In this document: in pieces, positions 57,572-61,659 of the stretch
Layout: every line of letters starts with the position of its first letter
Numbering within the stretch: position 1 is the first letter of the stretch
Assembly: GCA_902575375.1 (NCBI GenBank)
Contig: CACGRD010000002.1
Location: forward strand, 49,521 to 113,520
Length of the DNA stretch: 64,000 nucleotides
Reading direction: 5' to 3'
Source: an uncultured Alphaproteobacteria bacterium
GTDB lineage: Bacteria > Pseudomonadota > Alphaproteobacteria > HIMB59 > GCA-002718135
The notes under the pieces: generated by a model
Database searches by the model: none
What the model was told of the DNA's origin: nothing
The model's input: only the letters and a program-made list of their open reading frames with translations
Program-made: the position numbers and the translations under genes

Positions 57572-59039
57572 TTTAATAAAAGGTAAAAAGTATGATTGGG
57601 AAATGGTAATAGGTCTTGAAATACATGCTCAGGTAAAATCCAATTCCAAATTATTTTCTTCATCATCAACAAAATTTGGTTCATCACCAAATAGCCAAGT
57701 ATCTTTAGTTGATGCTGCTATGCCAGGAATGTTACCAGTAATTAACAAGTACTGTGTAGAGCAAGCAGTAAAAACTGGAGTTGGTTTAAATGCTAAAATT
57801 AATAATTATTCAGTTTTTGATAGAAAAAATTACTTTTATGCTGATCTTCCACAAGGATATCAAATTAGTCAGTACAAATATCCAATTGTAGGAGAAGGAA
57901 AAGTTACAATTGATTTTAAAGATGGAACATCGAAAGATATTAGAATTGTAAGATTACATTTAGAACAAGATGCTGGTAAAAGTTTACACGATCAAAATCC
58001 TTCAAAAACATATGTAGATCTTAATAGGTCTGGTGTTGCTTTAATGGAAATTGTTAGTGAGCCTGACATTAGAACGCCTGATGAAGCTGGAATGTATATA
58101 TCCAAAATCAGATCAATTTTAATGTATTTAGATACATGTGATGGAAATATGCAAGAGGGTTCTTTAAGAGCAGATGTAAATATTTCAGTAAGAAAACCTG
58201 GAGATGAATATGGAACTCGATGTGAAATTAAAAACTTAAACTCTATTAAGTTTATAAAGCAGGCTATTAATTATGAAGCAAAAAGACAAATAGAAATATT
58301 GGAGTCTGGCGGTTCTATTGAACAAAACACAATGCTCTTTAATACATCTACTGGCAAAACTAGACCCATGAGAAATAAAGAAGAAGCTCATGACTATAGA
58401 TACTTTCCTGATCCAGATTTATTACCACTAGAAATTTCTAAAGAAGAAATAGGGAAAATTAAATCATCAATACCAGAGCTTCCAGATGAGCTTAAGAATA
58501 AATTTATTGAGACTTATAAATTGTCTAATTATGATGCCTCAGTATTAACTGCAGAGAAACAAACATCTGATTATTTTAATGAAACAATTAATTCAGATCC
58601 AGAATTAAAAAATCATGCAAAAATAGTTGTAAATTGGATTACGTCTGAATTGTTTTCATTATTAAACAAAAATAATCAAGATTTAAATAACTCTCCAGTA
58701 TCACCTGAAAACTTAGGACAACTTATAAAGTTAATTTCTACAAATGAAATTTCTGGCAAAATTGCAAAAGATGTATTGGAAGACATGTTTTCTTCAGGAA
58801 AAACAGCTAGACAAATCGTAGATGAAAAGGGTTTGCAACAAGTTACAGATCAAGGTGAAATAGCAAAAGTTATTGATGAGGTCATTGCAGAAAATCCAAA
58901 AATGGTCGAACAGTATCTAGCAGGTAAAGATAAGTTATTAGGTTTCTTTGTTGGCCAAGCTATGAAATTAACTAAAGGAAAAGCTAATCCAAAAATGTTA
59001 AATGATATTTTAAAACAAAAATTAAATAAAAAAAATTAA
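57564..59039 (+). CDS. gatB: Glu/Asp-tRNA amidotransferase subunit B
   Basis: [13 protein letters not shown]...[11 protein letters not shown]...[17 protein letters not shown]...[10 protein letters not shown] motifs. Confidence 0.96.
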
Positions 59040-59366
59040 ACGTAAAGAATAGCATCTATAAGCAACAATTATAAATGTTAAAACTATCCAAATAATACTT
59101 CCTTTGTAGTTTTCTGCTGCTCTCCAAATTCCAATAGAAATAAATATTGTCCAAATAAAAATAAAAATTTTTGAGATTAGCGCAAGATTAGTAAAATCTA
59201 AAAAAGGTATTTGCGAAACAGAGCTATCTGTATTAAAAAAATAAATTTCAAGATTAAATATTACAAGTAAAACAATACCATTTAGTAGTTCACCAACTAA
59301 CCAATAGGATTTCCAGAGTTTTATTTTTCCTTCAAAAAAATCTTTTATTATATTTGTATTAGTCAT
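59022..59366 (-). CDS. Hypothetical small integral membrane protein
   Basis: 114 aa with about 3 predicted TM segments. I recognise no family motif. Co-directional with, and 64 nt downstream of, the DUF4198-like gene. Confidence 0.6.
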
Positions 59367-59430
59367 TTTTATTTATCTTTAATATTATAATTATTCATAA
59401 AATTTTTAATAGCAATTCAACACTCTTAAA

Positions 59431-60243
59431 TCATTTATTGGATGTTTTTAATGTATAAGAAGTCCACAACGAATGCCATTTAGCATAATTATCTTTTTTC
59501 TTATTACTGCCTTCAATTATAACAACACTTTCAATTAGATATTTTGTGTTTTCTTTAAATAAGTAATAAAAATATCCACCCTTGTTTGTTCTGACATATT
59601 CTTTTCTAAAATAACCATTATTTAAACTCATAATAGAAACCTTATGATCAGCTAGTATTTTATTTTTATATTCTAATAGAATTCTTTTACTTTCATTTAA
59701 ATTTTTAAGAGGATTGTCTAAAAAAATTAATTCAAAGTCCATATTTGTATCGATATCTTTACCATCAAAATTTTCCACGCTAATTAATGACTTTGCATAT
59801 CTTTTATAACTTTCAAAAAAATTTTCTGGGTAGTTATTTTCTCTATGTTTTTGAGCTAAATTTGGATATCCTTTCTCTCTTGTGAAAATTTCAAATTTTA
59901 CTAATTTTTCATACTCAACATATTTAGTAACTGATTCAACTTGTATTACATTTAATCCTTTGAACGCTTTTTTAATATTAAGAGCGGGAATATCACCTAA
60001 TCTACCTTTAATTTTTAATTTATTATCTTCAGCATGAAGGAATGCAATTTTAAAATATTCTTTTGTAAATGGTATTGGTGATCCTTCAAAATTTTCTCCT
60101 ATAAAGATATTCGCCACAGCTTTTTCATTATTTGATAAGTGATAATTTTTTGGATCAATCCAAAATTCATGACATAAAGAGATTTTTGTTATTGAAGTTA
60201 AGATAATAATAAATATTAATCTTTTTAAGGTAAATTTCATCAT
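59431..60243 (-). CDS. Secreted DUF4198 / COG5266 (CbiK-like 'Ni/Co transport periplasmic component') family protein
   Basis: Signal peptide MMKFTLKRLIFIIILTSITKISLC, then HEFWIDP (family hallmark H-[DE]-F-W-h-x-P). RYAKSL mid-motif and C-terminal AKWHSLWTSYTL (compare adWeSlWASLTF). Confidence 0.75.
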   Translation of the reverse strand: MMKFTLKRLIFIIILTSITKISLCHEFWIDPKNYHLSNNEKAVANIFIGENFEGSPIPFTKEYFKIAFLHAEDNKLKIKGRLGDIPALNIKKAFKGLNVIQVESVTKYVEYEKLVKFEIFTREKGYPNLAQKHRENNYPENFFESYKRYAKSLISVENFDGKDIDTNMDFELIFLDNPLKNLNESKRILLEYKNKILADHKVSIMSLNNGYFRKEYVRTNKGGYFYYLFKENTKYLIESVVIIEGSNKKKDNYAKWHSLWTSYTLKTSNK

Positions 60244-61399
60244 GTTCTCTTATATAAAAATTATAAAGTTATATCTATTTTTAATTCTAGTATGTTTTTT
60301 AAATTTATTTTCAACATCTTCTATTAGTCATGAAATCAAGCCATCTATTGCAGATTTTACTTATGATGAAAAATATTTGAACTTTAAAATAAGATTAAAC
60401 GCTGAATTGATATTATCTAATATTGATGCATCTACTGTTTCTAATACAGATTCTTCATCACTAAGTGAAATTTATGATAAACTTAGAATTTTAAGCAAAA
60501 AAGATCTTCAAGAAATGTTTCAAAATTCTTGGAGTGAAATAAGTTCTAATATTAATATTAAAATTAATAATGAATCAAAGATAATTACTTTAATTAAAAC
60601 TGAAGTTGAAGATATTAAAAATTTTGAAATAAGTAGAGATACACATGTTTATTTTAGAGTTTTATTAGATAAAAAATCTGAACAATTTACATTTAGGTGG
60701 GTCAAAAACTACGGCCCAATTATTTTAAGAGAGAATAACAATAACAAAGTAGAAGACGAATTAGTAACAGAATATTTGCAATCAGGAATTGAATCAAGTC
60801 TATTTTCATTTAAGGAAAATAATTTTAGTAAAACATTTAATAGCTTTGCAAAATTTTTTGTATTAGGAATTCAACATATAATTCCAAAAGGATTAGATCA
60901 TATTTTATTCATATTTGGACTTTTTTTATTTTCATCATCTTTAAAAAAATTAATTTCTCAAATAACTATCTTTACTATTGCTCATTCAATTACCCTTATA
61001 TTTGTTTCTTTATCTTTAATGAGAATCAATCCTCAAATTGTTGAACCTATCATTGCACTTTCTATAGTTTATATCGGATTAGAAAATATTTTTAAAAAAT
61101 ATATAAAGGAATATTTAAGATATGTTGTAATCTTATTTTTTGGATTACTTCATGGTTTAGGATTTGCATTAGTTTTGAGTGATATAGGTTATAAGAGCAG
61201 TGATTTATTTGTAAATCTCATCTCGTTTAATCTTGGTATTGAAGTTGCTCAAATATCTATAGTATTAGCTTTATATCTATTAATTGCTTTAAACTTTGCA
61301 AAAAATAAAAATTATAGAATTTTTTTTCAAGTTCCATCTTCTATATTAATATCGAGTGTTGGGTTATATTGGTTTTTTGAAAGAATTAATTTAATTTAA
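60242..61399 (+). CDS. HupE/UreJ_2-family membrane protein with a periplasmic N-terminal domain of about 190 residues
   Basis: Signal peptide ending ...STSSIS, then HEIKPSIADF. The C-terminal half carries HupE/UreJ-type motifs GIQHIIPKGLDHILFIFGL, FTIAHSITL and FGLLHGLGFA across 5-6 TM segments. TAAGGT SD-like element 11 nt upstream of the ATG. Confidence 0.75.
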   Translation: MFSYIKIIKLYLFLILVCFLNLFSTSSISHEIKPSIADFTYDEKYLNFKIRLNAELILSNIDASTVSNTDSSSLSEIYDKLRILSKKDLQEMFQNSWSEISSNINIKINNESKIITLIKTEVEDIKNFEISRDTHVYFRVLLDKKSEQFTFRWVKNYGPIILRENNNNKVEDELVTEYLQSGIESSLFSFKENNFSKTFNSFAKFFVLGIQHIIPKGLDHILFIFGLFLFSSSLKKLISQITIFTIAHSITLIFVSLSLMRINPQIVEPIIALSIVYIGLENIFKKYIKEYLRYVVILFFGLLHGLGFALVLSDIGYKSSDLFVNLISFNLGIEVAQISIVLALYLLIALNFAKNKNYRIFFQVPSSILISSVGLYWFFERINLI

Positions 61400-61567
61400 T
61401 AAAATTTTTAGGCACGCTATGGGCACAATGAATTTGTAACTCAAGCTAAGAAATGCTTTTTTAATAATTCCTTCATTGTTAACATTATTTTAAATATTAA
61501 TTAAATAATGTTGAGATTCCTGTCTATTTTCGTTATTACATCAATTAAGCAATATGAAACAATTACA

Positions 61568-61659
61568 GGAGAGATGGGTGAGTGGCTTAAACCACAGGTT
61601 TGCTAAACCTGCGAAGGAAGTAATTCCTTCCGAGGGTTCGAATCCCTCTCTCTCCGCCA
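61568..61659 (+). tRNA. tRNA-Ser (anticodon GCU), class II with long variable arm and encoded CCA
   Basis: Manual cloverleaf: acceptor GGAGAGA/TCTCTCC; 3-bp D stem GGT/ACC; anticodon stem CAGGT/ACCTG with loop TTGCTAA; 7-bp variable stem GAAGGAA/TTCCTTC; T arm GAGGG-TTCGAAT-CCCTC; discriminator G plus CCA. Confidence 0.93.

Follow-up and report, generated by a model that had tools for sequence, protein, structure and literature searches.

The subject of this analysis is a pair of divergent genes in a 64,000-nt stretch of contig CACGRD010000002.1 from an uncultured alphaproteobacterium of the SAR11 group (this whole stretch is referred to below as the window). The pair encodes a secreted DUF4198 protein and an inner-membrane permease of the HupE/UreJ-2 type that carries an N-terminal Ang-1 domain, and our results argue, with a probability of about 0.72, that it constitutes a two-gene accessory cassette by which a divalent transition metal is captured and imported. 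The DUF4198 gene (59431-60243, minus strand; 270 aa from its first ATG) was delineated by open reading frame (ORF) calling and by its match to the Pfam family PF10670, and the permease gene (60242-61399, plus strand; 385 aa), which is divergent from it, by ORF calling. The original prediction made for this region described a module of three genes, the third being a 114-aa membrane protein gene, located near tRNA-Ser(GCU). All three ORFs and the tRNA gene were found where it had placed them, the motifs it quoted (SLC/HEFWIDP, WHSLWTSYTL, GLDHILF, AHSITL, LLHGLGFA and SIS/HE, with the slash at the predicted cleavage site) are all present in the translations, and its placement of both proteins in metal-binding or transport families is borne out by Pfam and structural matches. 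The module itself, however, comprises two genes, DUF4198 and the Ang-1-HupE permease, and not three.

Assignment of the first gene product to the DUF4198 family is supported by a match to PF10670 with E = 6.6e-16 and a score of 59.5 bits (cutoff 34), which covers profile positions 4-205 of 209, and by a beta-sandwich model (AlphaFold 2, AF2; predicted local distance difference test score, pLDDT, 90.2) that matches the solved members of the family. The best structural match of the model in Foldseek was Zcp from Neisseria gonorrhoeae (9MHx; E ~1e-13, template modelling (TM) scores 0.64/0.72), and the other was IsDUF4198 from Ideonella sakaiensis (9GCB; E = 3e-9, TM 0.58/0.72, ~10% identity); these two were the only strong matches of the fold search. 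In sequence, the SAR11 protein lies far from both: a profile built from 50 permease-paired DUF4198 proteins and compared with PDB retrieved Zcp with E = 1.3e-7 and 9GCB with E = 0.037, and neither was found in single-sequence or SAR11-only profile searches of PDB with the DUF4198 protein. Relatives of the protein start at the second Met (60240), not at the first ATG. Residues 1-24 form the predicted leader, and the predicted mature protein starts with His25-Glu26-Phe-Trp (His25 codon at 60171-60169, minus strand); in the aligned DUF4198 proteins a hydrophobic leader with S-L-(C/S) at its end stands before His25, and the signal peptide would be cleaved directly before this residue. His25 is invariant across alignments A1, A3 and A5, as are W28, E144, R148 and K151 in the alignments of the protein, H133 is at least 90% conserved, and Glu26 is found in at least 90% of the 50 permease-paired proteins. 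His133 is a candidate second metal ligand; the further His ligands of the solved DUF4198 sites found no counterpart here, although for His18 of IsDUF4198 this holds for an alignment that did not extend over the N-terminal region of that protein.

The N-terminal part of the permease (residues ~30-190) has no Pfam match, as the original prediction had stated, and it can now be assigned, from comparisons of sequence and of predicted structure, to the Ang-1 'anglerase' domain. A phmmer search of solved structures matched permease residues 30-166 to PDB entry 9GCE with E = 2.9e-14, aligning His30 with residue His1 of the crystallised mature RbAng-1a, and the AF2 model of the whole permease (pLDDT 90.0; seven helices predicted between residues 194 and 381) matched 9GCE in Foldseek with a target-normalised TM score of 0.89, a root-mean-square deviation of 1.7 Å and 28% identity; no solved structure was matched to the membrane domain in this search. 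The polypeptide may be divided into a signal peptide (residues 1-29, ...STSSIS/HE; 60242-60328, plus strand), predicted from the alignment to mature RbAng-1a to be cleaved exactly before His30, the Ang-1 periplasmic beta-sandwich domain identified by the match to 9GCE (residues 30 to ~190; 60329-60811, plus strand), and the HupE_UreJ_2 transmembrane domain (Pfam residues 205-350; 60854-61291, plus strand), the helices of which run on to residue 381. The C-terminal half had been predicted to be a HupE/UreJ_2 domain, and it matches PF13795 over residues 205-350 with E = 1.3e-43 and 148.9 bits, so that both this family and DUF4198 are matched well above the Pfam gathering scores. The match to PF04955 (E = 8.8e-10, 38.8 bits, cutoff 23) is far weaker, and the permease appears better filed in PF13795 than in this classical HupE/UreJ family.

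Conservation in the permease was assessed by aligning 34 diverse homologues of full length. In the Ang-1 part H30, E31, P34, E55, R82, R132 and G158 are invariant; in the membrane part G217, H220 and H304 are invariant and H212, D219, H248, N330 and E334 nearly so. Asp70 occupies the position of the oxygen (O)-donor residue Asn41 of RbAng-1a in the alignment with 9GCE, and this position is mostly Asp or Asn among the homologues. When the Ang-1 domain was run with HMMER against the full library, 235 cluster representatives were retrieved at E<=1e-3. Of these, 83 are aligned from the first query position; all of them carry His at this position, always preceded by a signal-peptide-like leader, and in 81 it is followed by Glu. 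The His is universal in these Ang-1 representatives and invariant in the DUF4198 alignments, and the His-Glu start is a family hallmark, which supports the earlier claim that both predicted mature N-termini start with His-Glu. If cleavage precedes the His, the tell-tale mature N-terminal peptides would be HEFWIDPK and HEIKPSIADFTYDEK.

A scan with the permease alignment, in which each species was represented by a single genome, yielded 80 loci, mainly from Rhodobacterales, plus SAR11, Puniceispirillum and Granulosicoccaceae. A DUF4198 ORF is present at 66 of the 80, and at 63 the DUF4198 gene lies directly upstream of the permease gene in divergent orientation; the two families thus co-occur, and their pairing is near-obligate. 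A metagenomic relative with only 32% DUF4198 identity also has the two genes in divergent orientation, at a site between leuC and leuD. The loci without DUF4198 include a subgroup of longer Ang-1-HupE proteins (~430-450 aa) with the mature start HEVRPA[IV]G (L069, L071, L073, L077 and L078, with the permease match from 6001 in each). The sequence of the crystallised RbAng-1a falls into this subgroup, so that the sole biochemically studied Ang-1 stands for the unpaired proteins and not for the paired ones of the SAR11 type.

Neither regulators nor metal enzymes recur near the pair at the 80 loci; only genes for a PfkB kinase (28 loci) and PsuG-like proteins (26 loci) do, all of them in Rhodobacterales. 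Such neighbours of Ang-1 genes have been reported previously (PMC12537917), and the arrangement looks like clade synteny. Hydrogenase or urease genes were found neither in the flanks within the window nor at any of the 80 loci. The assumption that SAR11 lacks urease, one of the grounds on which the original prediction doubted the usual Ni/Co rationale, is too broad, as some SAR11 genera carry ureABCDEFG (PMC12636525). Two neighbours were seen in single cases: in a SAR11 relative of 59% identity, a gene for a PBP_like_2 periplasmic binding protein that immediately follows the DUF4198 gene on its downstream side (L007, 4360-5169, minus strand), and a 167-aa glyoxalase-family gene 2 kb from the pair in a Pelagibacteraceae metagenome-assembled genome (L024, 9148-9651, plus strand).

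The two genes of the pair are joined in an unusual way. The permease ATG (plus strand) and the first DUF4198 ATG (minus strand) overlap by 2 nt in a shared CATG (60241-60244, read from the sequence), leaving no intergenic spacer. The in-frame CATG overlap recurs in 48 of the 63 divergent pairs, across Rhodobacterales, SAR11 and Granulosicoccaceae (survey of loci L001, L004-L006 and L008-L081), and the spacing of the two mature-His codons equals 1 mod 3, the phase required by the overlap, in 59 of the 63. In the absence of a spacer, the expression signals of each gene must sit inside the other gene. At 33 of 42 non-SAR11 loci (e.g. L012, L016, L025, L039, L042, L044, L063 and L080) an exact TTGACA occurs on the DUF4198 strand inside the signal-peptide codons of the permease, in most cases 53-59 nt ahead of the ATG of the DUF4198 gene (background 1.5% per 100-nt window) and often followed by CAGCTT ~16-17 nt later; it is likely to be the -35 element of the DUF4198 gene. 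On the permease strand the same hexamer reads TGTCAA and gives a TCA Ser codon in the leader. As genomes of such high GC content generally use TCA rarely, its presence would suggest that selection acts on the DNA and not on the protein. A Shine-Dalgarno-like AAGG or AGGA precedes roughly every second start codon in the pairs. We infer that the expression signals of each gene would be embedded in the leader codons of the other, and that the 5' untranslated regions would be antisense to each other. Such an arrangement is not mentioned in the paper in which the families were defined (PMC12537917); the conserved overlap of divergent starts is an unusual regulatory layout and a new observation of this analysis.

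In the AT-rich SAR11 copy a sigma-70 scan of 59900-60600 found 3 sites, fewer than the 6.5 obtained in shuffled controls, so that promoters cannot be placed there, and no riboswitch or other Rfam element was found in the region. An array resembling a Fur box had been put forward as weak support for regulation of the permease gene; this site (60202-60221), which precedes the permease ATG by 21-40 nt, agrees with the Fur consensus of E. coli in 14 of 19 positions. Since the 64-kb window contains 14 equally good sites, almost all of them inside genes, it does not exceed the background, and we rejected it. The Fur-like site also resembles the region upstream of tRNA-Ser over 24 nt (60197-60220 and 61478-61501, 83% identical; GTTAAnATnATnnTAAATATTAAT), which in DNA of 21-25% GC is probably due to chance or to a shared promoter-like composition.

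From these data and from the properties of homologues we infer how the metal may be handed over between the two proteins, the direction in which it would be transported, how the genes may be regulated and which metal is the likeliest. The secreted DUF4198 beta-sandwich would bind periplasmic metal via the amine and imidazole of the free His25, probably assisted by His133 or Glu26, and could serve as a soluble, mobile collector or buffer that hands the metal to the tethered Ang-1 domain. Ang-1 would bind the ion through His30 and a likely O-donor, Asp70, swing on its linker and deliver the ion to H212, D219, H220, H248, H304 and E334 in the membrane, from where the HupE/UreJ-2 inner-membrane secondary permease would carry it into the cytoplasm. 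As their start codons overlap, the two head-to-head genes would share one control region and be expressed together. The idea of a periplasmic capture domain that feeds a channel, present in the original prediction, agrees with the model proposed for homologues, in which the tethered Ang-1 captures ions and feeds the permease (from AlphaFold 3 modelling and dynamics), and which drew on crystal structures and binding assays of homologous proteins (PMC12537917). As to the metal, the preferences of homologues are for Ni (IsDUF4198 and HupE), Cu and then Ni (RbAng-1a) or Zn (Zcp), and our estimate for the metal bound or transported is about 35-40% for Ni2+, about 20-25% for Cu and about 20% for Zn, with Co and others accounting for the rest.

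Several observations weigh against capture and import by the pair. To our knowledge, the direction of transport has been measured for no PF13795 protein. A search of the literature for expression of the pair under metal limitation found no report. The HEVRPAIG subgroup has no DUF4198 neighbour at any of the five loci with full flanks, and neither a metalloregulator gene nor a recognisable operator was found beside the pair at the 80 loci or in scans of the window. In the DUF4198 protein, Asn158 aligns with His142 of Zcp, so that the His triad of Zcp is not kept in SAR11, and mature His11 is conserved within the SAR11 clade only; the missing Zcp-type ligands represent metal-site variation between subfamilies, which does not exclude membership in the DUF4198 family. 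Finally, Zcp is dispensable for Zn uptake and has been proposed to be a periplasmic Zn buffer (PMC12663993), which means that a DUF4198 protein need not feed a transporter.

The main rival explanation follows from the last point. The DUF4198 protein could hold a pool of metal for extracytoplasmic enzymes, the permease being independent and the two genes merely co-regulated, and the role proposed for Zcp, together with its position as the best structural match of our model, lends this scheme some plausibility; it is nonetheless improbable in our estimation, as the tight head-to-head linkage maintained across orders (63 of 80 loci divergent, 48 with the CATG overlap) argues for a joint function with the permease and the His triad of Zcp is not conserved. 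Appreciably less probable is a role in export, detoxification or sensing, in which HupE/UreJ-2 would move the metal out or signal, and the periplasmic His sites would receive or sequester the ion. Such a role is compatible with the lack of a measured direction among PF13795 proteins. It could also draw on the location of some SAR11 copper-handling genes in variable regions (PMC12636525), but import of Ni is the function of those HupE proteins that have been characterised (Brito 2010, cited in PMC12537917), N-terminal-His sites of high affinity that face the periplasm suit scavenging, and no efflux-type regulator or partner was seen in the neighbourhood at the 80 loci. We consider it very unlikely that the His sites are catalytic, i.e. 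that the proteins act on a periplasmic substrate as redox or lytic polysaccharide monooxygenase (LPMO)-like enzymes instead of in transport: N-terminal His braces are catalytic in LPMOs and Cu-loaded Ang-1 and Ang-2 exhibit weak oxidase activity, but this activity is only comparable to that of free Cu2+ (PMC12537917), one of the His sites is fused to a permease domain, and no substrate genes are consistently linked to the pair, the PsuG and PfkB genes being confined to some Rhodobacterales (26-28 of the 80 loci).

The last alternative, a three-gene module including the 114-aa protein, targeted to the tRNA as an island and controlled by Fur, can be judged from the genomic context. On one flank of the three ORFs is gatB, which ends at 59039, and on the other, beyond the 3' end of the permease gene, is tRNA-Ser(GCU) (61568-61659). 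The 114-aa gene (59022-59366, minus strand; ORF call, with coordinates as originally predicted) overlaps the 3' end of gatB convergently by 18 nt. Its product, with three predicted membrane helices according to a reading of the sequence, has no match in Pfam and NCBIfam, and its 525 homologue clusters are all SAR11-like, with 75-97% identity among the best 120 listed. In the SAR11 loci L084, L085 and L086 the order is gatCAB, the 114-aa gene, tRNA-Ser and dapA, i.e. the gene is present beside gatB without DUF4198 or the permease; in L089-L092 it stands beside unrelated genes, and it always overlaps the end of gatB. It is confined to close SAR11 relatives, is absent from every non-SAR11 pair and does not accompany the SAR11 pairs in L007, L024 and L030. 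Since the gene keeps its position at gatB without the pair, it is a separate, lineage-specific gene tied to gatB, and we rejected it as a member of the module.

Alignment of the window to the empty site in L084 shows that homology resumes ~50 nt past the permease stop codon (~61450) and continues through the region upstream of the tRNA, and the left edge of the cassette lies somewhere in 59367-59430; the pair thus corresponds to an indel of ~2 kb at about 59.37-61.45 kb, and the presence/absence cassette as a whole occupies approximately 59367-61452. Its GC content is 21-25%, as compared with ~30% in the flanks. The ~115 nt upstream of tRNA-Ser (61453-61567), conserved between the window and L084, presumably represent the tRNA promoter region. 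The same spot is occupied in other SAR11 genomes by a Sulfotransfer_2 gene (L005, 4337-5197), by genes for a 454-aa unknown protein and a Methyltransf_24 protein (L088, 2745-4831) or by an OmpA-like 212-aa ORF (L001, 7435-8073), and in L089-L092 (1-4959) a block with aminotransferase, aldehyde dehydrogenase, RidA, ABC and amidase genes replaces the dapA synteny. More distant SAR11 genomes (L007, L024 and L030) carry the pair elsewhere. No integrase ORF was found in the window and no flanking repeat or tRNA-derived direct repeat around the cassette, and the insert lies 5' of tRNA-Ser, the upstream region of which is intact. Of the suggestion that the genes belong to a tRNA island, the presence/absence variation next to tRNA-Ser stands, while integration into the tRNA does not, and a classical tRNA island was rejected; the site is a small variable hotspot with a presence/absence cassette. 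The patchy occurrence of the cassette is in line with a published figure of only 45% for the share of SAR11 genomes with hupE/ureJ genes (PMC4771312). The three-gene island, which could appeal to the adjacency of the genes in the window, to the presence or absence of the pair at this site among SAR11 genomes and to the Fur-like match, can be dismissed as the least probable of all alternatives in view of the independent distribution of the 114-aa gene, the lack of an integrase or flanking repeats, the position of the cassette 5' of an intact tRNA promoter region and the equally good, mostly intragenic Fur-like sites elsewhere in the window.

Beyond capture and import by the two-gene cassette, we tentatively consider a more far-reaching possibility, which we regard as doubtful rather than probable: DUF4198 and Ang-1-HupE might form an obligate metal relay, with co-expression hard-wired by the overlapping starts and the antisense 5' ends, and in SAR11 might constitute a mobile cassette for metal scarcity. 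The metal-transporter repertoire of SAR11 is very small (PMC4771312), and a 2026 survey of the Southern Ocean singled out Pelagibacter DUF4198 genes, which may mark adaptation to trace metals, and urged their characterisation (PMC12972064). The conserved pair, the discrete cassette and the homologues with solved His sites make this idea testable; the occurrence of the cassette can be set against concentrations of dissolved Ni, Cu and Zn, and SAR11 isolates that carry it against those that lack it. If the relay exists, a unit of ~2 kb would tune SAR11 cells to the scarcity of one trace metal, and the cassette would mark, at the genome level, the trace-metal niche of the marine heterotroph that is the most abundant of all.

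Comparison with known systems reveals both what the SAR11 pair shares with them and where it departs. The system had been called uncharacterised and its mechanism possibly undescribed, which no longer holds, as both families and the capture model were published in October-November 2025 (PMC12537917, PMC12663993); the central intuition behind the original prediction matches these experiments. The fusion of Ang-1 to HupE/UreJ-2 (9GCE, Rhodobacteraceae) was described in Nature Communications in October 2025 (PMC12537917). In that work RbAng-1a was found to bind Cu by His1 and Asn41 with a dissociation constant (Kd) of 74 nM, the Kd for Ni being 220 nM, His was the first mature residue in 100% of the Ang-1-HupE/UreJ-2 proteins and in 79% of the DUF4198 family, and DUF4198 was already among the commonest gene neighbours of Ang-1 (PMC12537917). 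The SAR11 permease is like that of RbAng-1a in combining a signal peptide, His-Glu, the Ang-1 beta-sandwich, a linker and PF13795 in one polypeptide, and in having a putative O-donor residue, Asp70, at the position of Asn41. It differs from RbAng-1a, a protein of the ~430-450-aa type without a DUF4198 neighbour, in its length of 385 aa and in its divergent pairing with DUF4198.

Among DUF4198 proteins, IsDUF4198 binds Ni via His1 and His18 with a Kd of 18 nM (PMC12537917). The SAR11 protein shares with it and with other proteins of the NikK type the Pfam family, the beta-sandwich fold and the His after the signal peptide, but the partners of IsDUF4198 are TonB receptors, NikR or an energy-coupling factor (ECF) transporter, whereas that of the SAR11 protein is a HupE/UreJ-2 permease. 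Zcp (9MHI-9MHO), described in PNAS in November 2025, is a periplasmic Zn binder with the ligands His29, His31 and His142 that also takes Cu, Co and Ni (PMC12663993). It resembles the SAR11 protein in its family, in providing the best fold match and in the aligned mature start 'H-x-x-W'; unlike the SAR11 protein it retains the Zn triad, and it is Zur-regulated and works with ZnuABC, neither of which features was seen at the SAR11 locus. The crystallised Zcp construct (9MHI, residues 23-35) reads GAMV-HRVW..., with residues ahead of the conserved His, which means that the amine is not free and that the native N-terminal-His site may be unsampled in these structures.

The HupE of Rhizobium leguminosarum is a Ni permease (Brito 2010, as cited in PMC12537917), and it and UreJ (PF04955) have a related membrane domain, the conserved His/Asp of the first helices and the mature His start in common with the SAR11 permease, which differs from them in the additional Ang-1 domain of ~160 residues and in the absence of hydrogenase or urease genes nearby. 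ZrgA of Vibrio cholerae and PA4063 of Pseudomonas aeruginosa distantly resemble the Ang-1 domain (Foldseek E ~1e-3, TM ~0.5), and their likeness to RbAng-1a has been noted earlier (PMC12537917); they are stand-alone proteins of 6-12% identity with other metal sites, and this is a resemblance, not membership. What the present analysis adds to these systems is the assignment of the SAR11 domain to Ang-1, the near-obligate pairing, the presence/absence variation in SAR11 and the conserved overlapping divergent starts. In the light of the 2025 publications, the SAR11 pair does not represent a new mechanism but extends a known system by a new member from the sea.

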